Shown here: positions 2,309 through 61,239 of the stretch, in pieces
How positions within the stretch are numbered: position 1 is the first letter of the stretch
How the letters are laid out: each line of letters begins with the position of its first letter
Origin: a bacterium
GTDB lineage: Bacteria; Chloroflexota; Anaerolineae; Aggregatilineales; Phototrophicaceae
Assembly: GCA_033762735.1 (NCBI GenBank)
Contig: JANRLJ010000218.1
Coordinates: 8,943 to 72,942, forward strand
Direction of reading: 5' to 3'
Length of the DNA stretch: 64,000 nt
Program-made: the position numbers and the translations under genes
The notes under the pieces: generated by a model
What the model saw: the letters and a program-made list of their open reading frames with translations, nothing else
What the model was told of the DNA's origin: nothing
Databases searched by the model: none

Positions 2309-2345
2309 TGTTTACCCTGTAATAAGCGTGTAGAGTTGCACAAAA

Positions 2346-3323: not shown

Positions 3324-3326
3324 GCA

Positions 3327-4172: not shown

Positions 4173-4282
4173 GAAGAATCTTTTTATTGAGCATTACGAA
4201 AAAGTTTAACCACAGAGAACACAGAGCACACAGAGATTCGGAGTTAAAATCCGGTAAAATTGCGCTGGAATACTTTTAGTGT

Positions 4283-9336: not shown

Positions 9337-9344
9337 GGGATGTA

Positions 9345-9616: not shown

Positions 9617-9673
9617 ACAAGCCAGCATCACAACCGCTGTTAACCAAATTTAAGGTGATTAAACGAACATAAC

Positions 9674-10579
9674 ATGACCACCGCCGATACGTTATGGGAC
9701 GCCCTGCTCCCCGCCGCACTGCTGGGCACGGAGCGCCACACGCTGCAACTGCCGCCAGATGCGCCGCAGGTCTTACACGGCTTGCCCACGACCGATCCCG
9801 AAGCGCGGCTGCTGGCGACCGCCGCGACCGCTGCCATGATGCGCCGTTCCGGTCACATCCCGCCGGAAGACACCCACCTGCTGCCCGACCCTGCGCCGGA
9901 GGAAACGCTGCCTGTATGCACGCCGCGCTCTGCAAGGCGGCTCAATACCCTGCTCGGCCAAACGCTCGGTCAGGGACGCCCGCCATCACTATCGCTGTTG
10001 ATTGAATGGATGCACATCATCAGGCAGCGGGGGAAGCGCGTACCGTACTCGGTGCTGCCTGCTCTGCTTGATCTGACTTATCGCCAGCGCAGTGATGTGG
10101 ATTTCGTCCGCTTGGTCAGCGAGGTTATGGGCGAACGCGGGGGCTGGCTGGCACAGACGAATATGCGGTTTGAATACCTCCTCCATCCCCAACAGCCGCT
10201 TGAGAACGACTCATCGACGATACAGGCCGACAGAGATGCGCGGGAAGCACCTATCCTCGAACAGCTTCAGGAGGAAAGCGGCGCAGCCCTGAACGAGGCT
10301 GTTCAGCAATTGAGAGACATCACCTACACCTGGAGCGATACACTTACGACACTGTTCACCGAACGGATGGTGACGCTGATCGATCAGGCACCGCCGAGCA
10401 TTTTCACCGCCCTTCACTGGTACGATGTGCTGTTCGCCGCCCAAATCCCGCCCCATCGCCTGGAGGAGGTTCTGGCACGGCTGAAAAATATGCCAGAGGA
10501 AAAGCTGTCCTATCTGAAACGCCTGATCGACAAAATCGAATTTCGCCGCGACATGCTATTGGAGCTTGCCAATGAGTAA
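9674..10579 (+). CDS. DUF5691-like protein (second gene of SWIM/MoxR/vWA cluster)
   Basis: Position and size match the conserved uncharacterised cluster partner. The family name is recalled from annotation of similar clusters and is not verifiable here. Confidence 0.5.
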   Translation: MTTADTLWDALLPAALLGTERHTLQLPPDAPQVLHGLPTTDPEARLLATAATAAMMRRSGHIPPEDTHLLPDPAPEETLPVCTPRSARRLNTLLGQTLGQGRPPSLSLLIEWMHIIRQRGKRVPYSVLPALLDLTYRQRSDVDFVRLVSEVMGERGGWLAQTNMRFEYLLHPQQPLENDSSTIQADRDAREAPILEQLQEESGAALNEAVQQLRDITYTWSDTLTTLFTERMVTLIDQAPPSIFTALHWYDVLFAAQIPPHRLEEVLARLKNMPEEKLSYLKRLIDKIEFRRDMLLELANE

Positions 10580-11666
10580 CCAACCCAACACCGTCCAGCG
10601 CCGCCACGCCGAGGAAGAATACGCCGAAGAACTGTACGAACTGGCGAAGGCCGATACACGCCAGCGCCCGCCCAACTGGGCACTCTCACCCTGGGCGGTG
10701 GCGACCTATCTGCTCGGCGGGACGCTGGACAACGGCTACACCATCACGGCCAAGTACATCGGAGACCGCCGCCTGATCGAAATTGCGATTGCGACGCTGG
10801 CGACCGACCGCGCCCTGCTGCTGCTGGGCGTCCCCGGCACGGCCAAATCGTGGGTGTCTGAGCATCTCACGGCGGCTATCTGCGGCGACTCGACGCTGCT
10901 GGTGCAGGGGACAGCGGGCACGTCGGAAGAAGCCATGCGCTACGGCTGGAACTATGCGCGGCTGCTGGCGGAAGGCCCCTCGGAAAATGCGCTGGTCGCC
11001 AGCCCACTGATGCGGGCGATGGCCGAGGGCAAAATCTGCCGTGTGGAAGAACTGACGCGCATCCCCGCCGATGTACAGGACACACTGATTACGGTGCTTT
11101 CCGAGAAGACGCTGCCCATACCCGAACTGAACAGCGAGGTGCAGTCCGTCAAGGGCTTCAACGTGATCGCCACCGCCAATGACCGCGACCGGGGCGTGAA
11201 CGATATGTCCAGCGCCCTCACCCGCCGCTTTAACACCGTCGTGCTGCCCACGCCCGCCACGTTGGACGAAGAGGTCGAGATCGTCCGCCAGCGCGTCGGC
11301 AGCCTGGGGCGGATGCTGGAACTCCCGGCGGAAACACCCGCGCTGGAGGAGATGCGCCGCGTGGTGACGATCTTCCGCGAACTGCGGCACGGCCTCACGC
11401 TCGATGGGCAGACGCGGCTCAAGTCGCCCTCGTCCACGCTCAGCACCGCCGAGGCGATTTCGGTCGTCACGCAGGGGCTTTCGCTGGCGGCGCATTTCGG
11501 CAGCGGGACGCTCACCGCGCGCGATGTTGCCGGGAGCGTGGTCGGCGCGGTGGTTAAGGACCCCACGCAGGATCGCACGATCTGGCTGGAATATCTGGAA
11601 ACCGTCGCCCGCACCCGCCCGGACTGGACGGATTTGTACGAGGCCTGCCGTGAGGTGACGCGGTGA
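10566..11666 (+). CDS. MoxR-like AAA+ ATPase (AAA_5 type)
   Basis: Walker A (GVPGTAKS), a Walker B-like CRVEEL, and a sensor/arginine region (NVIATANDRDRG). It overlaps its neighbours by a few nt, which indicates operon coupling. Confidence 0.8.
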   Translation: MPMSNQPNTVQRRHAEEEYAEELYELAKADTRQRPPNWALSPWAVATYLLGGTLDNGYTITAKYIGDRRLIEIAIATLATDRALLLLGVPGTAKSWVSEHLTAAICGDSTLLVQGTAGTSEEAMRYGWNYARLLAEGPSENALVASPLMRAMAEGKICRVEELTRIPADVQDTLITVLSEKTLPIPELNSEVQSVKGFNVIATANDRDRGVNDMSSALTRRFNTVVLPTPATLDEEVEIVRQRVGSLGRMLELPAETPALEEMRRVVTIFRELRHGLTLDGQTRLKSPSSTLSTAEAISVVTQGLSLAAHFGSGTLTARDVAGSVVGAVVKDPTQDRTIWLEYLETVARTRPDWTDLYEACREVTR

Positions 11667-13993
11667 GCGCCAGTTCTAAAAAAGGCGGGTCACGCTCCGT
11701 CCACTTCTTCGGCATCCGGCATCACGGCGTTGGCTCCGCGCGGAGTCTGCGCCGTGCGCTGGAACAATTGCAGCCGGACGCGGTGCTGATCGAAGGCCCG
11801 CCGGATGCCGATAAGCTGATCGCGCTGGCATCTCATGCCGACATGCGGCCACCTGTCGCGCTGCTGATCTATAACCCCACACAGCCCCGCGAGGCGGCCT
11901 GGTATCCGTTCGCGGTCTATTCGCCCGAATGGCAGGCGATTCAATACGCGCTGGGGAATAAAATTCCGGTCACATTTATGGATCTGCCGCAGAAGCACCA
12001 GCTTCCGCTGCTGTATGCGCCGCCCGCTGAGGCCGAAGCACCGCCGGAAGACACCGACGCGGATGCCGATGCGGGCGAGGACGCGGGCGAAAACGCGCTG
12101 CTTGAAGCCGAACCCGCCGACATGCCTCCGCCGGTCGATTCCGCCGCGCTGTTACGCCTCGATCCGCTGCAAGCGCTGGCGCAGGCCGCTGGCTACAGCG
12201 ACAGCGAACGCTGGTGGGAGCACATGATCGAGGAACGGCAGAGCGGCGAGACGATTTTCGAGGCTATTCAGGAAGCGATGACCGCGCTGCGGGATGCGAC
12301 AGGCGCTCATCCCGACCCCGGCTACGCGCATCGGGAAGCCCTGCGCGAGGCATGGATGCGCAAGACCATCCGCGCGACGGAGAAGAAAGCGACACGGCTG
12401 GCGGTGATCTGCGGCGCATGGCATGTTCCCGCTTTGCTCGACCGGACGAATGTGGCGGCGGACGACGCGCTGCTCAAAGGACTGCCTTCGGTGGCGACCA
12501 CCGCCACCTGGACGCCCTGGACGTACAGCCGTCTCTCGCGGGACAGCGGCTATGGCGCGGGCATCACCTCGCCGGGGTGGTATCAACACTTGTGGGATAC
12601 CGCGCCTGACCAGATCACCATGCGCTGGATGTCGCGCGTGGCGGGGCTGCTGCGCGGGCAGGATTTTTCCGCCTCCACCGCGCAGGTCATCGACGGCGTG
12701 CGCCTGGCGGAAGCGCTGGCGGCGCTGCGCGGGAGGCCGCTGCCGGGTCTGGACGAGATGAACGAGGCGGCACTGGCCGTGTTCTGCCGGGGAGACTCCG
12801 CCCCCCTCAACCTGATTCGGCGCGACCTCATCATCGGGGATGCGCTGGGCGAAGTGCCGCCGGATGCGCCCACCGTCCCGCTCCAGCGTGATCTGGAATT
12901 GCAGCAGAAGGCGCTGCGGCTCAAGCCCGCGCTCGATGAAAAAATCCATGACTTCGATCTGCGCAAGCCCAATGATCTGGCGCGGAGTCGTCTGCTCCAT
13001 CGGCTGCGGCTGCTGCAAATTGAGTGGGGGGTGCGCCAGCAGAACCAGGTGCAGGCCACCGGGACATTTCATGAGTTCTGGAAGCTGGCGTGGAAGCCCG
13101 AATTTGCCATCGCGGTGATCGAGGCCAGCATGTGGGGCAACACGATTCAGGATGCGGCGGCAGCCAGAGTGCGCGACCAGGCCGAAACCAGCGACAGCCT
13201 CCTGCCCATTACGGCGCTGTTGGAGGATGTGCTGCTGGCCGATCTGCCGGAAGCGGCGGAGATCGTGCTGAATCGGCTGGAATCGGTCGCGGCGCTGACG
13301 AGCGATGTGGCCGTGCTGATGGACTCGCTGCCCGCGCTGGTCGATGTGCTGCGCTATGGCAACGTTCGTAAAACGGATACAGCGCTGGTGGCGCAGGTGG
13401 TCGATGGGCTGGTGATGCGCGTGTGCGTGGGACTTGCCCCGGCCTGCGCCTCGCTCGACGATGATGCGGCGGCGCTGATGTACAACCGCCTCAATCAGAC
13501 GCATTCAGCCATCACGCTGCTGCAAAACGCCGACTATACCGCCCACTGGCAGGGGGCATTGGCGGAGGTGGCCGATTTACGCGCCGGGCATGGATTGGTC
13601 GTGGGGCGGGCGGTGCGTCTGCTGCGCGATGCCGGGATTCTTTCGCCGGAGGAAGTCGCACGGCGGCTGCGGCTGGCGCTGTCGCGGGCGGTCGAACCGG
13701 CGCAGGCAGCGGCCTGGGTGGAAGGCTTTCTCAAAGGCAGCGGCGCGGTGCTGCTGTATGACGATACACTGTTCACCACGCTCGATTCGTGGCTGGCGCT
13801 GCTCCCCGGCGACACGTTTGATCTGCTGCTGCCGCTGCTGCGACGGACCTTCTCGACCTTCGCGTCGCCCGAACGCCGTCAGATCGGGGAGCGGGCGCGG
13901 CACGGCGTCCGCCAGCGGAGCGATCAACTGCTGCTGGACGAAGCACGGACGGCGAAGGTGCTGCCCATGCTGGAGCGGCTGCTGGGCATATAG
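11663..13993 (+). CDS. DUF5682-like large protein (fourth gene of cluster)
   Basis: 776 aa. The start overlaps the stop of the AAA ATPase gene (ATGA-type coupling). I see no recognisable catalytic motifs. Confidence 0.5.
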   Translation: MSASSKKGGSRSVHFFGIRHHGVGSARSLRRALEQLQPDAVLIEGPPDADKLIALASHADMRPPVALLIYNPTQPREAAWYPFAVYSPEWQAIQYALGNKIPVTFMDLPQKHQLPLLYAPPAEAEAPPEDTDADADAGEDAGENALLEAEPADMPPPVDSAALLRLDPLQALAQAAGYSDSERWWEHMIEERQSGETIFEAIQEAMTALRDATGAHPDPGYAHREALREAWMRKTIRATEKKATRLAVICGAWHVPALLDRTNVAADDALLKGLPSVATTATWTPWTYSRLSRDSGYGAGITSPGWYQHLWDTAPDQITMRWMSRVAGLLRGQDFSASTAQVIDGVRLAEALAALRGRPLPGLDEMNEAALAVFCRGDSAPLNLIRRDLIIGDALGEVPPDAPTVPLQRDLELQQKALRLKPALDEKIHDFDLRKPNDLARSRLLHRLRLLQIEWGVRQQNQVQATGTFHEFWKLAWKPEFAIAVIEASMWGNTIQDAAAARVRDQAETSDSLLPITALLEDVLLADLPEAAEIVLNRLESVAALTSDVAVLMDSLPALVDVLRYGNVRKTDTALVAQVVDGLVMRVCVGLAPACASLDDDAAALMYNRLNQTHSAITLLQNADYTAHWQGALAEVADLRAGHGLVVGRAVRLLRDAGILSPEEVARRLRLALSRAVEPAQAAAWVEGFLKGSGAVLLYDDTLFTTLDSWLALLPGDTFDLLLPLLRRTFSTFASPERRQIGERARHGVRQRSDQLLLDEARTAKVLPMLERLLGI

Positions 13994-14004
13994 GGAAAAA
14001 GAAT

Positions 14005-14880
14005 AAATGGCGACGCAAAAACCCAAAGAAGAAGGGAAAAGAAAAAGATTTGACGCAAAGCCGCAGCGCCAATTTGCGCGAATGCAAAGGTTCGCAAAGA
14101 GAAGGATGGCTGTAGGGGCGCACCCGTGTGTGCGCCTGTAATGCAAGAGAAAAAGGCGACACAAAGCCGCAGCGCCAATTTGCGCGAACGCAAAGGTTCG
14201 CAAAGTGAAGGATGGCTGTAGGGGCGCACCCGTGTGTGCGCCCGTAACACAAGAGAAAAAGGCGACGCAAAGCCGCAGCGCCAATGTGCGCGAACGCAAA
14301 GGTTCGCAAAGAAGAAGAGAAAAGAAAAAGGCGACGCAAAGCCGCAGAGAACGCAAAGGTTCGCAAAGTGAAGGATGGCTGTAGGGGCGCACCCGTGTGT
14401 GCGCCCGTAACACAAGAGAAAAAGGCGACGCAAAGCCGCAGAGAACGCTAAGGTTCGCAAAGTGAAGGATGGCTGTAGGGGCGCACCCGTGTGTGCGCCT
14501 GTAATGCAAGAGAAAAAGGCGACGCAAAGCCGCAGCGCCAATTTGCGCGAACGCAAAGGTTCGCAAAGAAGAAGAGAAAAGAAAAAGGCGACGCAAAGCC
14601 GCAGAGAACGCTAAGGTTCGCAAAGAGAAGGATGGCTGTAGGGGCGCACCCGTGTGTGCGCCCGTAACACAAGAGAAAAAGGCGACGCAAAGCCGCAGCG
14701 CCAATGTGCGCGAACGCAAAGGTTCGCAAAAAGAAGAGAAAAGGCGACGCGAAGATGCAAAGGTTCGCAAAGAGAAGAATGGCTGTAGGGGCGCACCCGT
14801 GTGTGCGCCTGTAATGCAAGGACACGGCATGCCGTGTCCCTACAAAGGCAATAAAGGGCGACGCACCGCATCGCCCCTAC
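14005..14880. repeat. Complex tandem repeat array (non-CRISPR), roughly 95-165-bp units
   Basis: Six copies of GTAGGGGCGCACCCGTGTGTGCGCC(C/T)GTAA at 14113, 14218, 14381, 14475, 14638 and 14785. The sequence between copies is itself repeated (GCGACGCAAAGCCGCAG, CGCCAATTTGCGCGAACGCAAAGGTTCGCAAAG). Two further palindromes lie at 14819-14843 and 14864-14880. Confidence 0.9.
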
Positions 14881-14924
14881 GACTACGATTGTGCGCGACT
14901 TTTTCAAAGGCTGACGGCTGATCG

Positions 14925-14990
14925 CTGACAGCTAAAAGCTAAAAGCTAACAGCTAAAAGCTAACCGCTAATTGCTAACTGCTAACAACTG
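14925..14990. repeat. AGCTAA(A/C) hexa/heptamer microsatellite
   Basis: AGCTAAAAGCTAAAAGCTAACAGCTAAAAGCTAACCGCTAATTGCTAACTGCTAAC lies directly upstream of the vWA gene. Related GCTAAC/GCGATTAGC runs occur at 27255-27300, 42915-42945 and 43030-43065. Confidence 0.8.
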
Positions 14991-15003
14991 AGGACTCTCC
15001 CAG

Positions 15004-16170
15004 ATGACCCACGACACTCCCGACGAACGCCTGCGCCGCTGGCGACTGATCCTCGGCGGCGAAAACGACGGCACCGAATGCAAGCTGGGCCAGCGCGACA
15101 GGGACATTGACCAGGCGTTAGGCGCCCTCTATGGGGGAGGGGATGGCAGCGTGATGGGAAAACCCGCCGGGCGCGAAGGTTCGCTGGGTGCGTCAGCGCC
15201 GAATGTCGCCCGCTGGTTGGGCGATATCCGCACCTACTTCCCGGCGTCGGTCGTGCGCGTGATGCAAAAGGACGCGCTGGAACGGCTGAACCTCAAGCAA
15301 ATGCTGCTGGAGCCGGAAATGCTGGAAGCCGTCGAGCCGGATGTACATCTGGTGGCGACGCTGCTCTCGCTCAACCGCATCATGCCCGACCGCACGCGAG
15401 ACACCGCCCGGCAGGTTGTGCGCCGCGTGGTCGATCAACTGGAACGCCGTTTGCGCCGCAAAACCGAACAGGCCGTGCTGGGCAGCCTGAACCGCGCCGC
15501 CCGCAACAACCGCCGCCCTCGCCATAACGAGATCGACTGGAACAAGACCATCCGCGCCAATCTGAAGCATTACCAACCGGAATATAAGACCATTATCCCC
15601 GAACGGCGCTTCGGCTATGGACGCAAGCAGCAGCGGCTGCGCGACATTGTGCTGTGCGTCGATCAGAGCGGGTCGATGGGAACGTCAGTGGTGTATTCGA
15701 GCATCTTCGGGGCGGTGCTGGCTTCGCTCAAGGCCGTCAGCACGCAGATGGTGGTGTTCGATACAGCGGTGGTCGATCTGACTGCCGAACTGCGCGACCC
15801 GGTGGAACTGCTGTTCGGGACTCAGCTCGGCGGCGGGACGGACATCAACCGCGCACTCGCCTACTGTCAGGGCATTATCCGCCGCCCATCGCAGACGATT
15901 CTGGTGCTCATCAGCGATCTGTACGAAGGCGGCGATGCGGAGTCGATGCTGCGGCGGGTCGGGGCGCTGGTCGGTTCTGGTGTGCAGATGGTGGCGCTGC
16001 TGGCGCTTAATGATGACGGTGCACCAGTCTATGACAAGAAGCACGCGGCAACCTTCGCGGCGATGGGCGTTCCTGCCTTCGCCTGCACGCCTGACCTGTT
16101 CCCTGATCTGATGGCGGCGGCCATCGAACGGCGCGACCTCTCGCAGTGGGCGGCGGCCAATTTGGAGTAA
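15004..16170 (+). CDS. von Willebrand factor A (vWA) domain protein
   Basis: MIDAS DxSxS (VDQSGSMG), with downstream T (GGGTDIN) and D (LISDLYEGG) residues. It is the fifth gene of the cluster and is separated from gene 4 by the repeat array. Confidence 0.8.
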   Translation: MTHDTPDERLRRWRLILGGENDGTECKLGQRDRDIDQALGALYGGGDGSVMGKPAGREGSLGASAPNVARWLGDIRTYFPASVVRVMQKDALERLNLKQMLLEPEMLEAVEPDVHLVATLLSLNRIMPDRTRDTARQVVRRVVDQLERRLRRKTEQAVLGSLNRAARNNRRPRHNEIDWNKTIRANLKHYQPEYKTIIPERRFGYGRKQQRLRDIVLCVDQSGSMGTSVVYSSIFGAVLASLKAVSTQMVVFDTAVVDLTAELRDPVELLFGTQLGGGTDINRALAYCQGIIRRPSQTILVLISDLYEGGDAESMLRRVGALVGSGVQMVALLALNDDGAPVYDKKHAATFAAMGVPAFACTPDLFPDLMAAAIERRDLSQWAAANLE

Positions 16171-18946: not shown

Positions 18947-20181
18947 TCAGCTTACCAGCCGCAGTTTGATCCCCAGCCACACGCCCACGAACACCGCCGC
19001 CCCGAACACCCAGCCGGACAGCGCGAAGGCCGAAATGCCCGAAAGCAGCGTCCCGACCGTGCAGCCCAGCGCCGTCATCGCGCCCCAGCCCATCAGCACA
19101 CCGCCCAGCACCGCCGTAAAGCCGTTGAGCGGAGTCAGCCGGGAAAGCTGGAAGCGGTTAGAAAGCAGCGCCGCCGCGAACGCCCCCACGATCAGCCCGC
19201 CGATCAGCAGGCCGTTGTCGGTGATGGTCTGCACGACCTGCGTGGCGCATCCGGCGAACGTGTCCAGCCCGTTGAGGCGGTCATCGAGATAGCCCGCGCT
19301 GGAAAGCACCGTGCGCGAGAAGCTGCCCAACTGCGAGGTCACACCCAGCGGTTCGACGCGCAGATAGACGAAGATACCGATCACGCCCACCACCGCCCCG
19401 GTCACGAGCGGATTCCAGCGCTGGCCGAACATGGTCTGATGCAGCCGTGCCAGCGTGATTCTGCCGCCGGGCTGCGCGGGGACTTCCGGCAGGTAACGCA
19501 GCAGCAGCAGCGCCAGCCCACCCAGAAGCGCCAGATGCAGCGCCAGCGACCCGGCATAGCCCAGGCGGGCGGGCATCCACGCGACGGGTGCGCTGGTGAT
19601 CGTGCTCAGGTAGAGGCTCTGCCAGGTGAAAAAACCTAGTCCGAAGCCGACCAGCGACCCGATCAGCGCCAGCGGTGCGCGGGCATAGCCTTCGCCCAGG
19701 CGGTAGAGATGGCCGCTGATGCACGCGCCGGAAAGCGCCATGCCCACGCCGAAGGCCAGCCCCGCCGCCGCCGTCGCCCAACTCACCGGGCCGATATGCG
19801 CGTTGGGGGGCAGCCGCCCGGTGCCGGGATTGGGCAGGAACAGGCCGAAGATGATGGCATAGCCCACGCCGCCCACCGCCAGCGCCATCAGAATGGCGAA
19901 GATGCCGCTGCTGTTGCGATGTTCGATGAAGTCGCGCAGGATGCAGAAAAAGCAAAAGCGCCCGCGCTGGAAAGCGATCCCAAGCGCCGCGCCTGTGAGC
20001 AGGGAATAGGAGGCTGCTGCGCCGCGCCCCGGTGTGGTATGCAGGGCATAGGCGCCCAGCAGAACCGCGATCAGCGCCGCCAGCGCCACGCCCGCCCGCA
20101 GCAGCCCGCCTCTCGTGTACTGGAATCGAAGGGGGGCGGCCCCCGCAAGAGCGCCGCCCCCGACCGTACTTTCGGTCATGA
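18947..20181 (-). CDS. YeeE/YedE family sulfur-compound (thiosulfate-type) transporter
   Basis: Multi-pass membrane protein carrying the paired conserved Cys-containing motifs FCFFCIL and GACISG. The ATG at 20181 starts MTESTV. Confidence 0.7.
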
Positions 20182-20183
20182 AA

Positions 20184-21125
20184 TTACTGCCCGCCCCAGA
20201 CGGTGCCCGCCGGGTTTTCCACCGGGACACCCACCGAGTTGCCGTATTCCGTCCACGAGCCATCATACAGGCGCACATCGTAACCGAGCAGCTTGGTCAG
20301 CACGAACCAGGTCAGCGCGGCACGTTCGCCGATGCGGCAGTAGGTGATGATCGGCTGGCTGCCATCGATGCCCAGCCCGGCGTACAGTTCACGCAGCTCT
20401 TCCACCGACTTGAATGTGCCGTCTTCATTCACGTTCTGCCCCCAGGGGACGTTGACCGCGCCGGGGATGTGGCCTGCACGCACGGCGAGTTCCTGCACAC
20501 CTTCGGGCGCGAAGATTTCGCCGTTGTATTCGGCATTAGAGCGGATGTCGATCAGCACGCCTTCGGCCTCGCCCGTCACCACATCCAGCACGTCCGGCAG
20601 CAGCGCACGCAGATCAGTGTTGGCTTCGGCGGCGGTGAAGTTGCCCGCTTCATAGCTGGGCGGTGCAACGGCCAGTTCGCGGCCTTCGGCTTCCCACTTC
20701 ACGCGCCCGCCGTCCAGCAGACGAACGTCCTGTGCGCCGTAGATGCTGAAAATCCACGCGCCCCACGCGGCGAACCAGTTGTTGTTGTCGCCATACAGCA
20801 CGACGGTGGTGTCATCGTTGATGCCCGCCGCCTGCGCCAGTTCCTGGAAACGCTCGGCAGAGACAATATCGCGCACCAGCGTATCGACGAAATCGGTGTG
20901 CCAGACGAAGTTGACCGCGCCGGGGATGTGGCCGCGCTCATACACGCCGGGGACAACGCTCACTTCGATGACGCGCACAGCGGGATTCTCAAGATTCTCG
21001 GCCAACCAGTCGGTGCTGACGAGGACTTCGGGGGCTTCGTCCTGTGCGCTGACGAGGGCGCTGGTCAGGACGGTGACGGCGGCAAGCAGAACGAACAGAA
21101 CAACAGATTGGGTCACTCGCTTCAT
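20184..21125 (-). CDS. Rhodanese-domain sulfurtransferase, secreted
   Basis: Signal peptide and two rhodanese modules, with the active-site loop CRIGERA. It sits immediately upstream of the YeeE gene. Confidence 0.75.
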   Translation of the reverse strand: MKRVTQSVVLFVLLAAVTVLTSALVSAQDEAPEVLVSTDWLAENLENPAVRVIEVSVVPGVYERGHIPGAVNFVWHTDFVDTLVRDIVSAERFQELAQAAGINDDTTVVLYGDNNNWFAAWGAWIFSIYGAQDVRLLDGGRVKWEAEGRELAVAPPSYEAGNFTAAEANTDLRALLPDVLDVVTGEAEGVLIDIRSNAEYNGEIFAPEGVQELAVRAGHIPGAVNVPWGQNVNEDGTFKSVEELRELYAGLGIDGSQPIITYCRIGERAALTWFVLTKLLGYDVRLYDGSWTEYGNSVGVPVENPAGTVWGGQ

Positions 21126-21533: not shown

Positions 21534-21965
21534 TCACCGCATCAAATCCTTAAAGTTAAGCAGAAAACGCAGTGCGCGGTGCGGCGTGTTGATGAATTCG
21601 TCGGCGTCGAACGGCTGCTGCAAAAAGCTGCTGAGTCCGTCCAGGTCTTCCTGAGACAGCTTCTCCCTGATCGTATCCACGTTGGAAAAGCCCATCGCCC
21701 ATTCCCCGAACAGGCGCTCCTCGGTCTTGCCGGAAAGCAGCGTGCGCATGGCGTGATGGCGCGGGTCGGTGGCGATCTTCTGATGCAGCTTGAGTACCGC
21801 ATCTTCGGGGCCTTCCAGCAGTTGGATGAAGTTCCCGCCCTTGTAGAGCAGCAGCCCGGTAATGCCGAGTGGGTTGTTGTTGCGGCGGCTGGCACGCAGA
21901 ATATCGAGGATGTCGTCCTGGGTAATGCCGTGCACGGCGGAACTGACGTACAGCAAATACATCAT
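21534..21965 (-). CDS. BLUF domain photoreceptor (short type)
   Basis: MMYLLYVS, NNxxxGITGLLLY and FIQLLEG motifs carrying the conserved Tyr/Gln/Asn. Confidence 0.85.
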   Translation of the reverse strand: MMYLLYVSSAVHGITQDDILDILRASRRNNNPLGITGLLLYKGGNFIQLLEGPEDAVLKLHQKIATDPRHHAMRTLLSGKTEERLFGEWAMGFSNVDTIREKLSQEDLDGLSSFLQQPFDADEFINTPHRALRFLLNFKDLMR

Positions 21966-22073
21966 GGCGGAAAAGCCTCCATGTAAAGAGGGGGATGCAG
22001 TTGTCTGATGTGGTGAAGCAACAGCGTGGGGAGAAGCGGGTTTATCGAAACACTGTTGACCGTATTCAGTTTT

Positions 22074-22499
22074 TTATGCGTGCTGCGGCATGTCCTTGAA
22101 ATTGAGCAGGAAGCGATAGGCACGGTTGGGCGTTTTCAGGAATTCGTGTTCGTCGAAGGGCTTCTGCAAAAAGTCGCTCAGGCCGGGGACGTGCCGCTGA
22201 TCGACCTTGCTCAGGTCATAAAACGCCATCGCCCAGTTGTTGAACTGCCGTTCCTGCAATGGACCCGAAAGCATGGTGCGGACGCTGGTATGGCGCGGGT
22301 CGGTCATCAGGCGGCGGTGCAGCCCGATCACGTTCGACTTTGGCCCCTCCAGCAGTTGGATAAACTGGCGATCCTTGTAGAGCAGCAGGCCGGTGATGTC
22401 GTCGCGCAGGTTATTCCGGCGGCTGACCGTCAGAATGTCCAGCAGATCCGACGTTTCCATCGGATACGCGGCCTCGCTCACATACAGCAAATACATCAT
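22074..22499 (-). CDS. BLUF domain photoreceptor (paralogue)
   Basis: Same motif set (MMYLLYVS, DITGLLLY, FIQLLEG). It is tandem with 21534..21965. Confidence 0.85.
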   Translation of the reverse strand: MMYLLYVSEAAYPMETSDLLDILTVSRRNNLRDDITGLLLYKDRQFIQLLEGPKSNVIGLHRRLMTDPRHTSVRTMLSGPLQERQFNNWAMAFYDLSKVDQRHVPGLSDFLQKPFDEHEFLKTPNRAYRFLLNFKDMPQHA

Positions 22500-32749: not shown

Positions 32750-33297
32750 GGAATTTCCGCTCCATAAGTGCTAAATCAATTTTCCTCGCAGGGGCATGGC
32801 GCACCATGTCCCTCCTATTTCCCTGATAGAATGAAAATCCCTTCCGAAATATTGAATGCAGGAGCATACGGAAAAGTGCAACATGCGTTCAATATCCCTC
32901 CGAATACTTGGCCTGATAATGTTATTTTGCCTCACTGCCTGTTATAGATTGCCATTTGTGCAATCACAGTTTCCTGATTGGATCGTTGCGATTGATATCT
33001 CACGAGCCAGTCAAGCAGGGTTTACCATTGAAATTGATGACAGCCTCGAATCGCTTGTACGCCTATACCTGGCTTATCAATGTGCCTTAACGTACTAAAT
33101 GGTGTATCCGGTAAGTCCTGATGACTTTCTGAGTGAACTTTGGTAGGGGCGACTCGGCGAGTCGCCCCTATAGAACACCTGAAATAAAGAGGTGGTTTTT
33201 TGGTGGATGCACCACTAACTTGGACTCCTCGTATTGAGCAATCAACCTGTTAAAATCCGCGCATTGAACAAGCATCAATACCAAAGGACTACGACCC

Positions 33298-34392
33298 ATG
33301 AATTTCGATTACGCAGCGCGGCAGGCCAGATTGCAGGCCATCCAGGGCGCGAAGGCCATTGCCCTCGTCCCCGGCGCGAATATGGTCTATTTTACCGGGC
33401 TGCATTTTCACCTCTCCGAGCGACCCACGATTGCGCTGTGGAGCGACGGTCAGCTCAGCTTCATCATCCCCGAACTGGAAGTGCCCAAGCTGCGCGAACG
33501 CCCCGACATCGAAGCGCGGGTGTTCGCCTGGAAGGACTCCAACGGATACGCCGCCGCCTTTGCCGAAGCCGCCCGTGAATTGAACCTGAGCGACGGCGCA
33601 CTCGGCGTGGATGGGCAGGCCATGCGCGTGTTCGAGAGTCAGGCGTTCGAGGCGGCAGGCGTGACGAAGGTCGCCAACATCGGGCAGGAGTTGCTCAAAA
33701 TCCGCGCGATCAAGACCCAGCAAGAAGTGGACGCGATGCGCGAGGCGATTCGCATCAGCGAGGCAGCGCTGGCAACGCTGATGACGTGGATTCAGCCGGG
33801 CATGAGCGAACGCGAGATCGGCGCACAGCTTTCCCGCCTGATGATGGAACATGGCAGCCAGGGCGTGACCTTCGAGCCGTTGATTCAGTCCGGCCCCAAC
33901 AGCGCCAACCCGCACGGTTTTATCACCGACCGTCAGGTGCAGGCTGATGAATTCCTGCTGATCGACTTCGGCGGGCGCTGGCAGGAATATCCGGCGGACA
34001 TCACCCGCACCGTCTGCCTGGGCGTCCCGACCGCTGAGATGCAGACCATTTACGACACGGTGCTGGCGGCGAATCAGGCGGCGCTGGCGGTGGCGAAACC
34101 GGGCGTGACCTGTGGCGAGGTCGATCAGGCCGCCCGCGCTGTGATCGAGGCGGCGGGCTATGGGCAGTATTTCATCCACCGCACCGGGCATGGGCTGGGG
34201 CTGGAAGGCCACGAACTGCCGCAGATCGCGGGCGGGGTGCAGGAGCCGCTGCAAACCGGGATGGTGTTTACTATCGAGCCGGGGATTTATGTGCCGGGGC
34301 TGGGCGGCGTCCGCATTGAGGACAACATCGTCGTGACCGAGAGCGGCGCAGAATCGCTCACGCAGTTCCCGCGCCAACTGACGACGCGGTAA
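33298..34392 (+). CDS. M24 family Xaa-Pro aminopeptidase
   Basis: Pita-bread fold metal ligands (DFGGRW, HRTGHGLGLEGHE, FTIEPGIY). Confidence 0.8.
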   Translation: MNFDYAARQARLQAIQGAKAIALVPGANMVYFTGLHFHLSERPTIALWSDGQLSFIIPELEVPKLRERPDIEARVFAWKDSNGYAAAFAEAARELNLSDGALGVDGQAMRVFESQAFEAAGVTKVANIGQELLKIRAIKTQQEVDAMREAIRISEAALATLMTWIQPGMSEREIGAQLSRLMMEHGSQGVTFEPLIQSGPNSANPHGFITDRQVQADEFLLIDFGGRWQEYPADITRTVCLGVPTAEMQTIYDTVLAANQAALAVAKPGVTCGEVDQAARAVIEAAGYGQYFIHRTGHGLGLEGHELPQIAGGVQEPLQTGMVFTIEPGIYVPGLGGVRIEDNIVVTESGAESLTQFPRQLTTR

Positions 34393-35375
34393 TGGATGGT
34401 CGCCTGATCTTTCACGGAATCGACGTTTCACATCAACGCCTGGTCGAGCTGACCTTACTTGCCGATCAGTGTAAACCGTTTTATGATTGGGTGGAACAAA
34501 TTTTCCAGCAGGAGCTTCGCTCCACGAAAGTGCTCGATCAGCTTTTGCAGACAGCATCGCTGCCCGATCTTCAAAACGCCCTGACGATGTGCTATACCGC
34601 CCGCGATGATCTGCCAAAGCTGTTTGACGGCTTAGGGCGCACCTACCCTCACACAAGAGCCTGCTACTATTTTTTTGCGTGGATGATTCGGGATGCGCCG
34701 CAGCAGCGTCTAGCGCCACTTATTCAGCGAATTGTCCGTCAGTCAGGGAAAAATCGGGTTGTCGTTGAAATTGAGGTTCTGGCATCGCTGATTTATGATT
34801 ATCGGGGAAATGTACGCTCTTTTGCCTGGGAAGCAGTCCGTGAAATTATCATCGACCGTCTGGAAGGTTCGCGGCGAAGCCTTAAAGGACACCAGAAAGA
34901 GGTGATCGTGCGAACGGCACTGCTGACCGCTTTCCAGACCTACTATGCACAATACCAGAACTACGGCATTTACGCAGATATCGCGATGACACAAAGCCAG
35001 ATGAAAGCGGGGAGCGAAACGGTAGATGTTGTTGCCCGCTTACTCGATAATGAGGGCAGGCAAGTTCGCAGGGTTTTAGTGCCGATCAAGACTCGTGAGA
35101 CGGAAGGGGGCGGTCATGCTCATCTTTTCAGCCGTGATCTTAGCGCCGCGCTTTCTACCATGCGAACAAGCAGCCCCAACGACTTCATCGCTGTTATTCT
35201 GGTGGCAAAGAACTGGTCGCCCCGTGAAGTGGAAGTACTGAGTGAACAGGTTGACCATCTTGCTTTTTTCGATCTGTCACCGGGTGAGTTTGTACACTTC
35301 CATGCCGTTGAGCAAGGACGGCTGAACACCTTTGTCGCTTCCATTCTTCAAGGAAATTTTGTGAAACGAGCCTGA
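34392..35375 (+). CDS. Hypothetical protein; candidate restriction endonuclease of an R-M cassette
   Basis: Its start overlaps the peptidase stop (TAATG) and its end lies 3 nt before the beta-class MTase start. The block is visibly lower in GC. I recognise no family. Confidence 0.4.
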   Translation: MDGRLIFHGIDVSHQRLVELTLLADQCKPFYDWVEQIFQQELRSTKVLDQLLQTASLPDLQNALTMCYTARDDLPKLFDGLGRTYPHTRACYYFFAWMIRDAPQQRLAPLIQRIVRQSGKNRVVVEIEVLASLIYDYRGNVRSFAWEAVREIIIDRLEGSRRSLKGHQKEVIVRTALLTAFQTYYAQYQNYGIYADIAMTQSQMKAGSETVDVVARLLDNEGRQVRRVLVPIKTRETEGGGHAHLFSRDLSAALSTMRTSSPNDFIAVILVAKNWSPREVEVLSEQVDHLAFFDLSPGEFVHFHAVEQGRLNTFVASILQGNFVKRA

Positions 35376-35378
35376 CGA

Positions 35379-36263
35379 ATGCACGAATCTGACGTTGATA
35401 GAGTTCTTCTGGGCGATAGTTGGGCGCTTTCTAAAACGCTTCCTTCGGAGGCGGTGCAGTGCATCGTCACCAGCCCACCTTACTTCGGCCACCGCAATTA
35501 CACCGGGTCAGATGCACTCAAACCGTTCGAGTTCGGCCAGGAAAAATCGCCTGCTGAATACGTGGAAAAGCTGCAAACGCTGTTCACCGAATTTAAGCGT
35601 GTGTTGAAACCGAATGGAACAGTATGGCTCAACCTGGGGGATAGCTACCGCGACCAGCAGTTACTCGGCATTCCCTGGCGTGTGGCACTGGCTTTGCAGG
35701 ATGCGGGCTACTACCTGCGCAGTGAAATTATCTGGCATAAACCCAACGCGATGCCCTCCTCCGTGAAAAACCGCCCAACCACTGCCCATGAGCACCTTTT
35801 TCTGCTGACGAGAAGCGATCAATACTATTACGATGCCGACGCAATCCGAGAGCCGCACGTCACCTTTTCGGAAAAATCGCGGATGCGAGGTGGGCGTGGT
35901 CACTTTGGGAAGCGCAACAGCACACCCGAAAACGGCAAGAATAAGCAAAATCCCAACCTCCACGATGGACGCTGGGATCAGGCCTTCCATCCTAATGGCA
36001 GGAACAAGCGCACCGTGTGGGAAATTCCGCTGGGGAAATTTCGGGAAGCGCACTTTGCCGTCTTCCCAGAGACATTGGTCGAAACCTGCCTGCTTGCCGG
36101 AAGTGCTGCTGGTGATTTGGTGCTTGATCCTTTTATGGGTTCGGGAACAACAGCGCTGGTTGCCAAAAGGCTGGGGCGCAACTTCCTGGGCATTGAACTC
36201 GTTCCTGAATATGCAGAAATGACGATGAGGCGCATTCGTGAAGTTCAGCCTGTTCTGCTTTAA
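35379..36263 (+). CDS. Beta-class N4-cytosine/N6-adenine DNA methyltransferase
   Basis: Motif IV (SPPY) at aa 32 and motif I (DPFMGSGTT) near the C-terminus, in the pfam N6_N4_Mtase order. Confidence 0.85.
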   Translation: MHESDVDRVLLGDSWALSKTLPSEAVQCIVTSPPYFGHRNYTGSDALKPFEFGQEKSPAEYVEKLQTLFTEFKRVLKPNGTVWLNLGDSYRDQQLLGIPWRVALALQDAGYYLRSEIIWHKPNAMPSSVKNRPTTAHEHLFLLTRSDQYYYDADAIREPHVTFSEKSRMRGGRGHFGKRNSTPENGKNKQNPNLHDGRWDQAFHPNGRNKRTVWEIPLGKFREAHFAVFPETLVETCLLAGSAAGDLVLDPFMGSGTTALVAKRLGRNFLGIELVPEYAEMTMRRIREVQPVLL

Positions 36264-48026: not shown

Positions 48027-48195
48027 TCGTCCCGTCCTTTCGCAAAAAAGCGGGATTATGAACGGTCGGGCGGAATCCGGCGAGAGCCAAAGAAAGGATT
48101 TGACGCCAAGAGAGGGGGTAGGGGCGCACCCGTGTATGCGCCCGATGTGGCAAAAAGAGAGGGGGCAGGCGTCGAACCCGCCCCTGTCTGGCTGC

Positions 48196-49705: not shown

Positions 49706-49739
49706 GAGGGGCGAGTCTGGAAACCCGCCCCTGAGAATG

Positions 49740-50354
49740 TTATTGCAGGCTGTTGGCTGCGTTGAGATCAGCGATCAGGTCTTCGGCGGCGGGATTGCCC
49801 GTCAGCAGCCCGGTCGTGGTGCCGTCGGGACGGATGATGAAATGCGGCTGCGTGGGCGGCACGGTGATGCTTAACCCGAACTGATCGCGCAGGGCGGCCA
49901 GCAGTTCCGGCGTCATGACCGCGAACGTCCAGGGAAAGGCTTCATCCTCGGCATAGGCGGCGAGATCGGCGGCGGTGTCGTTCGTCTCAATCGTGAGCGA
50001 GACGAACACAAACTGATTGGAGTCCATCTGGGGGTACACCTGGTCGCGCACACGGCGCTGACTGATACGGCAGTTCGTTCACCACCGCGCCATCGGGTGG
50101 ACGAAGACCGTCTTCCCGGCGAAATCGGCCAGGGTGAAGGTCTGCCCGGTGCGGGCGTCCGTCAGCGGCAGCCGCGTCCAGTCCGCGCCCTGATAGGCCA
50201 CACTTCCCGGTGCGCTGGCCTGGGTCGTCGCTTCCGGTTCACGTGTAGGGGCATTGGTCGGCGTGGGAGTCGATCTGCTCCCGCCGCAGGCCGCCAGCAA
50301 CAGCAGCGCGACCAGTGCCGACAAAAGGGTCAAAATTCGTCTGAGCATCAGCAT
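49740..50354 (-). CDS. TlpA/ResA-like thioredoxin-fold lipoprotein with in-frame TGA at CxxC position (candidate selenoprotein, U-T-N-C motif)
   Basis: ORFs 50079..50354 and 49740..50051 are in the same frame, separated only by the TGA at 50079-50081. The read-through protein is a lipoprotein (LAAC lipobox) with FAGKTVFVHPMARW-[TGA]-TNCR, matching the redoxin W-C-x-x-C. The C-terminal thioredoxin-fold pattern ITVPPTQPHFIIRPDG follows. Confidence 0.6.
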
Positions 50355-50645
50355 CCTTTCCAGTAAGAAAATTCCTATCAGGACTTACGCACTTAAAAGT
50401 CGCTTCTCTCGTAAGGGCGGGTTTCAAACCCGCCCCTACAACCGACGGCTTGCGTAAGTTCTACAGTTTTGGTGTTTGCATCGGGCAGAGGCAGGGACAC
50501 GAGCGCCGTATGAACGATGCGCTGTATCCCCGCCGCTGGCAACCGATCACTCGCAATTGAGATTGTGGCGCAGGGTGATTAAAATTTGATAACGCCGGGG
50601 TGAACCTCTTGAACTGCCAGGACGCACAGGACGCTACGAAAATTA

Positions 50646-58870: not shown

Positions 58871-60184
58871 TTACAGATACTGCTGCGCGGCCAGCTTCAC
58901 CACCCCTTCGGGATGGCCGACCAGCCAGCGCAGCGCGTTCAGGCTGCGTTCGCTGCCGATTTTGCCGAAGGCGTGCGCCACCTGCTGCAAAACGGCGGGT
59001 TCGGTGCGTTTGCTCAGCGCTTCCATCAGCGCGTCCTCTGCTTCGGCGGTGCCGATCAGCGCCAGACCGTTGGCCGCCGCCTCTGCCCCGCCGGAACGCC
59101 CGCTGAGCAGCACGGTCGCCAGCGCACTGATGCTGAGTTCACCGCCGATCCGCGCAAGGGCGGCTGCCGCGTGTTCGCGCACCCCCGGCTGCGGATCGGT
59201 CATGGCCTGCGTAAGCAGCGGGATATGCCGCTGTACGCCGGTTTCCGACAACACCTGCGCTGCCATCGTGCGCACTTCCCCGCTGTCATCGCCCAGCGCC
59301 TGCTCCGCCAGTTCCACCGCGACAGGCTCCCGATTGCTGTGCAGCATCCGCAGCGCCCAGGCGCGGCACTCCCAGTACGGTTCGTCCATACACGCCCGCA
59401 GTGCGCCCGTCAGCTTATCCAGCGGTTGAATGGCCGCCAGCGCCAGCGGTGCCAGCTTTGCCCAGTGGGTTTCGGCTTCCTTGCGGGTGCTGCTGGCGAG
59501 GCTGTGGCGGACGTGCTTCCAGAAGATGTACTGCCCGTCGGTGGGGTTAAAGGGCGCGTCCATATCGTGCTGCCACGCCGCCAGCGCGATCACCGCCTGC
59601 CCGCGCAGCCGTTCGATGGGGCTGCGGCAGGCTTCCGCCAGCAGCGCTACCCATTCTTCCTGCCCTTTTTGTGCCAGCGCCGGCAAAATGAAGGACGGGG
59701 ATTTCTGGAACAGCGTGCCCATCGTATTCATGTCGGGGATGCGCAGCGCGGTGCGGGACTCGGTTTTGGGTTTGGCGAGCGCGGCACGAGCGGGTTCGAG
59801 CAGACGGGTGATCGCGGCTTCGATCTCGTCCAGCGAGGCCGACTTGAGCAGAAAGGCATCCGCTCCCACTGCTTTCGCCCGCCGCATTGCTTCCGGGTCG
59901 TCGGCCATCGTAACCATCAGAATCGGAATCGGGGCGGTGTGGATGTTGCCGCGCAGCTTGCGCACCACTTCCGGCCCCTCCAGATCAGGCAGGTTATAAT
60001 CGAGCAGAATCAGGTTGGGATGATAGCGCACTGCCAGTTCATAGCCGCGATGCCCGCTTAGCTCCACGCGCACATCACAGTCCAGTCCCATTAAAATCTG
60101 GCGATAGGGGAAGCGGTGCGCCTGGTCATCGATGACCAGCACCCTGAGTTTATCGGTCGCCGGTGCGTTGAAGATTTCTACCAT
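58871..60184 (-). CDS. Response regulator receiver fused to HEAT/PBS-lyase-like repeat domain
   Basis: Receiver (LVIDDQ...LILLDYNLPDLEG...K), then about 300 aa of HEAT-like repeats (VRTMAAQVL, VREHAAAALARIG). Confidence 0.65.
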   Translation of the reverse strand: MVEIFNAPATDKLRVLVIDDQAHRFPYRQILMGLDCDVRVELSGHRGYELAVRYHPNLILLDYNLPDLEGPEVVRKLRGNIHTAPIPILMVTMADDPEAMRRAKAVGADAFLLKSASLDEIEAAITRLLEPARAALAKPKTESRTALRIPDMNTMGTLFQKSPSFILPALAQKGQEEWVALLAEACRSPIERLRGQAVIALAAWQHDMDAPFNPTDGQYIFWKHVRHSLASSTRKEAETHWAKLAPLALAAIQPLDKLTGALRACMDEPYWECRAWALRMLHSNREPVAVELAEQALGDDSGEVRTMAAQVLSETGVQRHIPLLTQAMTDPQPGVREHAAAALARIGGELSISALATVLLSGRSGGAEAAANGLALIGTAEAEDALMEALSKRTEPAVLQQVAHAFGKIGSERSLNALRWLVGHPEGVVKLAAQQYL

Positions 60185-60195
60185 CAGTGCGTCGT

Positions 60196-61239
60196 TTACT
60201 CCGCGCCTCGTGCGCCGACTACATAGCGCTGCACCACCCGAATCAGTTCTTCGGTCTGGATTGGCTTTTCAAGAATATCCTTGACGCCCTTAAGCACCAG
60301 CATCTCGCGGGTGCGGCGGCCATCCCATTTCAGACTGGTGATAATCACCACCGGAACGCTGGTCTGATAGCGCTGGAGCAGATCGAGCAGGTACATACCG
60401 TCCTGCCCGGTCTTCTGGTCGTCCGGGCCGAGCATCATGTCCAGCGTAATCAGTTCATAACGGTGCTTGCGGATAAGGACGCTGGCTTCGTTCAGGGTGC
60501 TGGCCGTGTGCACCTCAAGCCCCTGCCCGGAAAGAATATCGCGCAGCACTTCCTGCATGGCTTCCATGTCTTCAATTGCCAGCGCCAGCGGTTTCACGTG
60601 GGTGTGTAAGGATGAGGTCGTAATACGGTTTTCGGAAGTTTCTTCTTCCCGTCCCCCCTTCATCTGCGCCGCGTCCCCTCGCGCCGCCTCCCCTCGCGCC
60701 GCGTCTGTCCGTGCCGCGTCCCCTCGCGCCGCGTCTGTCCGTGCCGAATCTATACGCGCCGCATCCACTCGCGCCACTTCGTGCACATTCAGCCCTGGCC
60801 GGGGCGCGGTGTCTTCCAGCGGGTCGCGCTGCTGTTCACCACGCCGCACCACCGCCTGAAACAGGGCGCGGTTCAGCTCCTTAAAGGCCTGTTCCATCCG
60901 GTCGCGGAAGTCGATGTAATGCAGATGATCGAGAAAAGCCGGGAGGGCGGTATAGCGCATCATCAGGGGGATGACCGTGCAGTTGTATTCCTGGGCGCGC
61001 TCGACTTCGTACTGCACCCAGCTTGAGCGCACCGACTCCGGCGTGAGCAGCACCAGCATAGCGACAGATTGGGTGAGCGCCCGGTCAATCGACTTCTTCC
61101 ATTCATCGCCGCCCTTGAGTTCGGTGAAGTCGATCCAGGTGCGAAAGCCCATTTCCTCGACCCGTTGTGAGAAAAGATTCGCGGTGAGACGATCTTCGTG
61201 GCTGTAACTGATAAAAACACCCACTTCCTGTCGCTGCAT
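60196..61239 (-). CDS. TIR domain protein fused via repeat linker to C-terminal response-regulator receiver domain
   Basis: N-terminal TIR signature (VFISYSHEDR...SSWVQYEVERA), the linker DAARIDSARTDAARGDAARTDAARGEAARGDAA, and a receiver with acidic pocket and phosphoacceptor (LAIEDMEA...ELITLDMML...K in LEKP). Confidence 0.7.
   Translation of the reverse strand: MQRQEVGVFISYSHEDRLTANLFSQRVEEMGFRTWIDFTELKGGDEWKKSIDRALTQSVAMLVLLTPESVRSSWVQYEVERAQEYNCTVIPLMMRYTALPAFLDHLHYIDFRDRMEQAFKELNRALFQAVVRRGEQQRDPLEDTAPRPGLNVHEVARVDAARIDSARTDAARGDAARTDAARGEAARGDAAQMKGGREEETSENRITTSSLHTHVKPLALAIEDMEAMQEVLRDILSGQGLEVHTASTLNEASVLIRKHRYELITLDMMLGPDDQKTGQDGMYLLDLLQRYQTSVPVVIITSLKWDGRRTREMLVLKGVKDILEKPIQTEELIRVVQRYVVGARGAE
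60664..60775. repeat. 15-bp tandem repeat (about 7 units) encoding the (D/E)AAR(G/T/I) linker of the TIR-receiver protein
   Basis: GCGCCGCGTCCCCTC / GCGCCGCGTCTGTCC / GTGCCGCGTCCCCTC units are seen directly. Confidence 0.85.

Follow-up and report, generated by a model that had tools for sequence, protein, structure and literature searches.

The 64,000-nt window analysed here, part of the 91,174-bp contig JANRLJ010000218.1 of an NCBI metagenome-assembled genome (MAG), carries on its minus strand a redoxin gene whose reading frame is crossed by an in-frame TGA that most likely encodes selenocysteine (Sec) at the active site, as judged from comparison with relatives. Two open reading frames (ORFs), 50079..50354 (91 aa, ending ...FAGKTVFVHPMARW-TGA) and 49740..50051, lie in one frame, and the TGA at 50079-50081 is the sole interruption of 204 sense codons that run from ATG 50354 to the TAA at 49740-49742; translation around the stop gives ...DFAGKTVFVHPMARW-TGA-TNCRISQRRVRDQV.... 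A second ATG at 50348 (202 codons) is the start used in GenBank, and the upstream AGG is better spaced for it than for ATG 50354. The GenBank record splits the gene into SF029_23125 (MDX1995295.1, 89 aa) and SF029_23120 (MDX1995294.1, 95 aa), both named 'hypothetical protein'. The gene has the following features, each given with the evidence that defines it:

49740..50354, minus strand: complete predicted selenoprotein gene (ORFs, alignment, GenBank record).
50286..50354, minus strand: lipoprotein signal peptide MLMLRRILTLLSALVALLLLAAC with the lipobox L-A-A-C (sequence motif, alignment).
50079..50081, minus strand: TGA, the predicted Sec codon, residue 92, in the column of the first, nucleophilic Cys of CxxC (alignments).
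50070..50081, minus strand: predicted redox motif U-T-N-C (TGA ACG AAC TGC), directly before predicted helix 94-109 (alignment, model).
50043..50062, minus strand: predicted bacterial Sec insertion sequence (SECIS) hairpin GUC-A-GCGC / CGUGU / GCGC-GAC (folding, comparison with relatives).
49821..49859, minus strand: PPTQPHFIIRPDG, the conserved Pro loop and next strand of the thioredoxin fold (alignment, model).

TGA is also the commonest normal stop in the window, where it ends 15 of the 33 Pfam-supported genes, so the genetic code is not reassigned. The protein has 807 homologues in a large protein collection, and those with a taxon name are assigned to Anaerolineae, Chloroflexales, Chloroflexota, Aggregatilineales or Promineifilaceae. 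The 27 best of them (48-65% identity) share the motif P-M-A-[RT]-W-C-[TS]-N-C-R, with Cys in the TGA column in 27 of 27. In the alignment, A22 and C23 of the LAAC lipobox are invariant across 28 sequences, about 30 residues of Pro/Thr/Ala-rich, low-complexity linker come after the signal peptide MLMLRRILTLLSALVALLLLAAC (pLDDT, the predicted local distance difference test score, of 53-56), and P167, P170, F172, D177 and G178 are invariant around a predicted strand at 171-174. The best phmmer matches among solved structures are 3or5 and TlpA, with CxxC in register: 'marwCtnCr' aligns to 'atwCppCr' of 3or5 and to 'atwCvpCr' of TlpA 1jfu. An AlphaFold model built on the 27-homologue alignment (mean pLDDT 87.6, above 95 over residues 56-200) places residue 92 directly ahead of helix 94-109, and its top Foldseek matches in the PDB are Aquifex aq_2194, B. 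subtilis ResA (target template modelling score up to 0.85), DsbF, TlpA and pneumococcal Etrx1/Etrx2. Alignment and model agree on a thioredoxin fold in which W-(C/U)-x-x-C opens helix 1 and the Pro loop is conserved, so that the TGA stands where an exported reductase of the TlpA/ResA type has its exposed, nucleophilic Cys; the LAAC lipobox suggests that the redoxin is exported and lipid-anchored. The initial annotation, made from the letters of the window, had described two same-frame ORFs with a single TGA between them, a signal peptide with a LAAC lipobox, TGA at the first Cys of CxxC, a thioredoxin-fold C-terminus with its Pro region and a TlpA/ResA-like identity; the 204-codon frame, the invariant A22/C23, the Cys of the homologues aligned to the CxxC of solved TlpA-like structures, the invariant P167 and P170, and the fold model with its phmmer and Foldseek matches bear out each of these.

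With Cys in place of the stop, Pfam matches to Redoxin (23.6 bits, cut-off 26.6) and AhpC-TSA (23.4 bits, cut-off 26) both fall below threshold; PF08534 and PF00578 are precomputed for many of the homologues. Scores for the NCBIfam TlpA and ResA equivalogs lie far under their cut-offs, so the redoxin is a superfamily member and an orthologue of neither, and neither the window protein nor the representatives chosen from the other Sec groups described below reached the cut-off of a curated NCBIfam model, WAxxUGC_long included. Three more specific names were considered and rejected. Sco1/SenC, the name given to several homologues by JGI, calls for C-x-x-x-C and a distal His as copper ligands; the family spacing is U/C-x-x-C, and Sco structures rank under ResA in the fold search. 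Peroxiredoxin (AhpC/TSA, PrxQ/BCP), likewise a name in use for some homologues, has the peroxidatic motif P-x-x-x-T/S-x-x-C, and H-P-M-A-R-W-U-T-N-C lacks a Thr or Ser three residues ahead of the U/Cys. The WAxxUGC ResA-like selenoprotein model NF041054 scored 16.2 bits against a cut-off of 300, the motif here being W-U-T-N-C.

The TGA recurs in independent data. A contig from an unrelated metagenome, L098 (Ga0613623_008432, JGI sample 3300072958), has the window's gene order of redoxin, HxlR, NmrA-like and M24 peptidase, and shares with the window the TGA, an identical downstream hairpin and gene calls split like those of the GenBank record, while about 7% of the surrounding bases differ. The synonymous divergence (pS) between the two is 0.24-0.27, the ratio of nonsynonymous to synonymous divergence (pN/pS) is 0.22 upstream of the TGA and 0.09 downstream, and L098 has no further stops or frameshifts past the TGA. 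Another contig of the same JGI sample, L097, carries the Ala-racemase-like gene and ends before the redoxin gene, and is uninformative. That the source is a MAG lends some weight to a sequencing or assembly error at the TGA; the probability of such an error is close to nil, since L098 was assembled independently in a different project and has the same TGA at this divergence, and another form, W-TGA-L-N-C in a split gene of 92 + 95 aa, came out identical in the assemblies of three data sets, one a Candidatus Limnocylindrales MAG and two from read archives (L101-L103; L103 is GCA_035633675.1).

A scan of species-representative genomes with peptide patterns of the family gave 80 loci; the source genome was not among them, and the best match was 60% identical. 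The codon in the Cys column of 62 genes from these genomes is TGC in 32, TGT in 29 and TGA in one, making 61 of the 62 Cys forms. The lone TGA belongs to an Anaerolineae MAG (L020), where the sequence reads ...HAMADW-TGA-ATCRSSQRSLRDD... in an otherwise intact gene. A DNA pattern search of metagenomes requiring A-G-x-x-V-x-V-x-x-M-A-x-W-TGA-x-x-C yielded 16 contigs, each with an intact lipoprotein redoxin gene with TGA, and a search of the protein collection with the C-terminal fragment returned more half-length entries. In all, TGA stands in this column in 20 further contigs, which represent at least four sequence groups; their genes are otherwise intact, with 107-116 open codons past the TGA, and wherever gene calls could be seen (the window's GenBank record, L098 and L101-L103) they split the gene in two. 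A listing of same-frame ORF pairs split by one stop, made in search of other selenoproteins or broken genes, was too noisy at 60% G+C.

These data also bear on whether the gene is simply decaying. A pseudogene in which TGC or TGT had mutated to TGA would take a single base change, and would agree with the Cys of nearly all homologues and with the public annotation in two fragments. We consider it very improbable, as L098 keeps the TGA at a pS of about 0.25 with a downstream pN/pS of 0.09 and no more stops or frameshifts, the TGA occupies the same column in at least four diverged groups, and the TGA forms have a specific hairpin that is kept by synonymous codon choice (see below). The initial annotation had named pseudogene and assembly error as its two alternatives, and we take both as excluded by the TGA kept in the diverged L098 and the strong purifying selection downstream of it.

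The window hairpin has seven pairs, one bulged A and a 5-nt loop, CGUGU, with G-U at loop positions 2-3; it starts 16 nt past the TGA, with a UGA-to-loop spacing of 24 nt and a free energy of -7.5 kcal/mol. Each Sec group has a hairpin of 6-8 bp that starts 8-16 nt past the UGA with GU in the loop, and the groups differ in sequence:

Sec group A (window, L098, L020, L086, L087, L101-103): hairpin GUC-A-GCGC/xGUxU/GCGC-GAC.
Sec group B (GMAVW-U-SSCRAQQVVVRD): hairpin GCACAAC/AGGUG/GUUGUGC.
Sec group C (GMAVW-U-xNCLSQQLVVK): hairpin UCACAAC/AGUUG/GUUGUGA.
Sec group D (HPMATW-U-LGCRDQFGR): hairpin GCGACCA/GUU/UGGUCGC.

Many Cys homologues fold equally well downstream of their codon, and raw minimum free energy gives no contrast between Sec and Cys forms; only a descriptor restricted by position, shape and loop separated the two. 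This descriptor (a lone hairpin that reaches -7 kcal/mol or better, begins 8-22 nt past the codon and has GU in its loop) fits 12 of 13 distinct Sec forms vs 2 of 71 Cys forms (Fisher p = 1e-11), a comparison in which the Sec set is phylogenetically non-independent and involves four different hairpin sequences. Within group A, all seven pairs form in five of five sequences, and in L087 a G-C pair is replaced by A-U through two synonymous changes, CAG->CAA and CGC->CGU. The same protein segment is encoded differently in the two kinds of gene: group A Sec forms encode S-Q-R-x-[VL]-R-D as AGU CAG/CAA CGC ... xUG CGC/CGU GAC, whereas the Cys forms L001 and L002 encode the S-Q-R-x-x-R-D peptide with AGC, GUA or UUA, and GAU, leaving five of the seven pairs. 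In these two (L001:7701 and L002), the closest Cys forms, the register of the five pairs is unchanged, which agrees with a SECIS remnant in decay since a Sec-to-Cys replacement.

A second structure, a perfect 9-bp hairpin GUUCGUCUC/GCUCACGAUU/GAGACGAAC at 49980-50007 (minus strand), lies in the coding region at the F-V-S-L-T-I-E-T-N codons. At 72 nt from the UGA it is too distant to be the SECIS; its outermost pair is gone in L098, and it may be a chance structure.

If the UGA simply terminated translation, the two halves would be separate proteins, or the 9-kDa N-terminal lipopeptide would be the only functional product. Bacterial recoding is usually incomplete, and some truncated product is to be expected (PMC4513850). 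Termination as the whole account is nonetheless extremely improbable: the N-terminal piece ends inside the active-site motif and lacks a fold of its own, the sole start codon before the conserved downstream part is GTG 50051, nine codons past the TGA, the intervening T-N-C-R-I-S-Q-R-R codons themselves belong to the conserved part, selection is strongest downstream of the TGA, and in the model both parts together make a single thioredoxin domain.

Several observations weigh against Sec at this codon. The metagenome search targeted TGA forms and is uninformative on their frequency. Folding of the 45-65 nt downstream of the TGA showed no signal over shuffles (z = +0.99 and +0.18 for the 65 nt), no better than chance for the hairpin alone, so its significance rests on the comparison with relatives. 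Covariation in group A amounts to one pair in five sequences and is matched by 93 of 500 shuffles. The hairpin is short, its -7.5 kcal/mol lies exactly at the limit of the published bacterial SECIS (bSECIS) model, and Rfam yielded no family hit, SECIS or otherwise, whether at the gathering threshold or with E relaxed to 10. With ARAGORN the 64 kb window gave no tRNA gene, and the only tRNAs in related loci were tRNA-Arg. SelA, SelB and SelD were absent from the Pfam results for 40 window ORFs, and tblastn with the three E. coli proteins had no match in the window or related loci. Sec at residue 92 is a prediction from sequence comparison.

The bSECIS model specifies a loop of 3-9 nt with G among its first two nucleotides and, as a rule, G/U next, a UGA-to-loop distance of 16-37 nt and an energy of -7.5 kcal/mol or lower (PMC13188914). 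The hairpin that the initial annotation had proposed about 16 nt downstream of the TGA is present at 50043-50062 and agrees with this model; the check it had suggested, to fold the region and compare it with the consensus, had a mixed outcome, the hairpin taken alone being no better than shuffles. Sec use and SelB have been reported in Chloroflexi, including Anaerolineales (PMC1794560; PMC4959059), which makes the lineage compatible with Sec decoding.

The remaining question is which residue would be inserted. The conserved TGA, the hairpin and the purifying selection support recoding generally and not selenium specifically, so that Cys or another residue could in principle be inserted at the UGA, by way of a SelB-dependent tRNA that has a UCA anticodon and carries Cys. 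Mukai and colleagues are said to have proposed UGA-to-Cys systems in some bacteria in 2016, after loss of Sec synthesis. Neither selA nor selD was found in the window or related loci, and unusual tRNA-Sec structures have been reported in Chloroflexi (PMC5389517), as have tRNA-Sec of the 8/4 form. We give non-Sec recoding a low probability: Sec is by far the commonest outcome of SECIS-dependent recoding and U-x-x-C in a thioredoxin fold is typical of it (PMC1794560, PMC13188914), nothing would favour TGA plus a hairpin over TGC if the product were Cys, and the negative result for the sel genes spans 64 kb only. The comparative data taken together demonstrate recoding, and we infer, as is standard, that the residue is probably Sec rather than Cys from a variant tRNA. 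The recurrence of the TGA, the Sec-specific hairpin and the purifying selection thus support the selenoprotein reading of the initial annotation, with U at the first CxxC position. The two ORFs are very probably a single gene whose product, a TlpA/ResA-type thiol:disulfide oxidoreductase, is exported and lipid-anchored and has Sec in its active site (W-U-T-N-C), and our verdict, on comparative grounds, is that of a real, conserved and mis-annotated selenoprotein gene. Such a gene predicts that the uncultured source organism needs selenium and carries the Sec machinery.

The putative function follows from the family. The UGA at 50079-50081 would be recoded as the hairpin recruits SelB with Sec-tRNA(Sec), so that Sec is inserted and translation does not terminate, and export of the redoxin would follow, with a lipid anchor attached by way of the LAAC lipobox. 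Once outside the cytoplasmic membrane, the redoxin would reduce disulfides or sulfenates of client proteins, the selenolate attacking and the resolving Cys95 releasing the product. Most relatives have, immediately downstream, a gene for a CcdA/DsbD-type membrane protein that would return the redoxin to its reduced form; the window copy and its closest Sec relatives have no CcdA neighbour, and their CcdA is presumably encoded elsewhere. By analogy, the redoxin is most likely an extracytoplasmic disulfide/sulfenate reductase that is kept reduced via CcdA and uses a selenolate nucleophile.

The association with CcdA is widespread in the family. A tblastn search with a representative CcdA-like protein matched 89 related loci, and clustering of neighbours placed a CcdA-like gene (representative matching DsbD_TM, PF02683) within 4 kb of the redoxin in 59 of 90 loci, including Sec groups B, C and D. 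These three groups (L081-L096) are CcdA-linked lipoprotein redoxins, mostly on JGI metagenome contigs, and all are Sec forms in a sample targeted at TGA. By tblastn, the 64 kb window has no CcdA-like gene at all and L098, L086 and L087 likewise lack one, and a CcdA copy distant from the window redoxin gene is possible. L020 has Sec and Cys redoxin copies about 1.2 kb apart (genes at 1195-1788, 2954-3694 and 3775-4428), the Sec copy being the upstream one; a CcdA-like gene follows the Cys copy only, which suggests that the paralogues have divided their roles.

A neighbour-joining tree of 89 domains interleaves the group A Sec forms with the Cys forms L001, L002, L041, L062 and L003 in one clade and places groups B/C and D on separate deep branches; the tree is crude, and the sampling of groups B-D targeted TGA forms. 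All group A Sec genes have one hairpin sequence in common, of which Cys relatives keep part. The interleaving, the shared hairpin and the partial hairpins suggest, as the simplest reading, a Sec ancestor of group A with later Sec-to-Cys replacements, in agreement with described cases of 'remnant SECIS' (PMC1794560). We also considered a broader proposal, in which the H-x-M-A-x-W-U-x-x-C clade comprises ancestrally selenium-dependent Chloroflexota surface lipoprotein reductases uncoupled from CcdA, its Cys members being losses with 'fossil' SECIS elements and its Sec copy having a dedicated extracellular role or being recoded non-canonically (e.g. as Cys); we regard this as unlikely.

The neighbours of the redoxin gene in the window, an HxlR-type regulator, an NmrA-like reductase, an M24 peptidase and a D-Ser-dehydratase-like protein, give no hint of a client; cytochrome c maturation and Sco/CoxB genes are absent from its vicinity, and no Msr gene was seen adjoining it. 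Stem-loops of the GGGGCGGGTTT type on both sides suggest that the gene is transcribed on its own:

50415..50435, no strand assigned: perfect palindrome GGGCGGGTTT-G-AAACCCGCCC, between the upstream Ala-racemase-like gene and the redoxin gene.
49708..49731, no strand assigned: stem-loop GGGGCG...CGCCCC with the GGGGCGGGTTT motif, between the convergent redoxin and HxlR genes.

The second of these begins 9 nt past the TAA stop of the redoxin gene. The palindrome at 50415-50435, which has no T-tract terminator, is likely a transcript boundary. The exact 10-mer GGGCGGGTTT occurs three times in the window vs 0.14 expected, and all copies flank the redoxin gene (in 50415-50435, 49708-49731 and 48174-48185), one pair making a perfect 10-bp palindrome; a longer form of the motif has a one-mismatch copy in the next intergenic gap. 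The repeats look like a small intergenic stem-loop family, REP-like (repetitive extragenic palindrome) or terminators without a T-tract. Elsewhere in group A, L086 and L101-L103 have a neighbour with a lysyl-phosphatidylglycerol-synthase-type transmembrane domain (PF03706), and in L101-L103 the redoxin gene is followed by an unannotated 264-aa gene whose start overlaps the redoxin stop; the window has neither.

Other features of the window are as follows. At 18947-20278 (minus strand) lies a YeeE/YedE-type sulfur transporter (PF04143) in its Cys form, with SGACISG and LGCTVGT motifs; the family includes Sec members with GUxSG (PMC13188914). A conserved cluster at 7972-16170 (plus strand) encodes a SWIM zinc finger protein, DUF5691, AAA_5 (a MoxR/dynein-like ATPase), DUF5682 (896 bits) and a CoxE-like VWA protein. 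Two tandem genes for BLUF blue-light sensors (143 and 141 aa) occupy 21534-22499 (minus strand), and 58871-61239 (minus strand) holds a pair of adjoining response-regulator genes, of which one is fused to HEAT repeats and the other to a TIR domain at its N-terminus that matches the ThsB-like TIR family as well. Genes for N6/N4 DNA methyltransferases lie at 962-2308 and 35379-36263 (both plus strand); around 962-3323 and 33289-36263 the third-position G+C is 0.51-0.60, vs 0.7-0.8 in the neighbours, and these stretches may be foreign DNA.

For annotation, the result means that the window gene and at least 20 related metagenome and MAG genes would be Sec redoxins, and that joining the fragments corrects the records. 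It adds a predicted exported, lipid-anchored selenoprotein to the Chloroflexota selenoproteome, and the interleaved Sec and Cys forms, sharing one hairpin that is partly decayed in some, make a compact data set for Sec/Cys exchange and minimal SECIS elements. The understanding of how selenoproteins work is unchanged by the window redoxin. Among bacterial selenoproteins, UxxC in a thioredoxin fold is the classic arrangement (PMC1794560; PMC13188914), and published lists include a 'Thiol:disulfide interchange protein' (UxxC) and a 'UGC-containing TlpA family' protein (PMC1794560; PMC13188914 Table 1). TlpA-like UxxC selenoproteins are thus already known, and the window gene is a further member of that kind.

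The closest known systems resemble the window redoxin in different respects. The published TlpA-like UxxC selenoproteins (cd02966), which we compared with it by their published description (reference sequences WP_011366075.1 and MGB1650493.1, the latter the 'thiol-disulfide isomerase-like' selenoprotein of PMC13188914), are alike in the thioredoxin fold, Sec as the first residue of UxxC, the existence of Cys homologues and a SECIS directly after the UGA; the window clade has its own signature, a lipobox and H-P-M-A-x-W-U-x-x-C-R-x-S-Q-R-x-x-R-D, and its members are labelled Chloroflexota (Anaerolineae, Limnocylindrales). B. subtilis ResA and Bradyrhizobium TlpA share the membrane tether, the export and the W-C-x-x-C site, and most relatives of the redoxin are CcdA/DsbD-paired; the window protein differs in its identity of about 19-22% to them, in Sec for Cys, and in a lipoprotein anchor in place of a transmembrane helix. 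The S. pneumoniae pairs Etrx1/Etrx2 and CcdA1/CcdA2 (PDB 4hqs, 4hqz) offer a structural match among surface lipoprotein thioredoxins, but the etrx genes adjoin a CcdA gene, whereas the window redoxin has no adjacent CcdA. The Etrx proteins use Cys and feed MsrAB2. Finally, the WAxxUGC protein (NF041054) is likewise a TlpA/ResA-like selenoprotein, with W-A-x-x-U-G-C in about 354 aa, whereas the window redoxin has W-U-x-x-C in about 200 aa.

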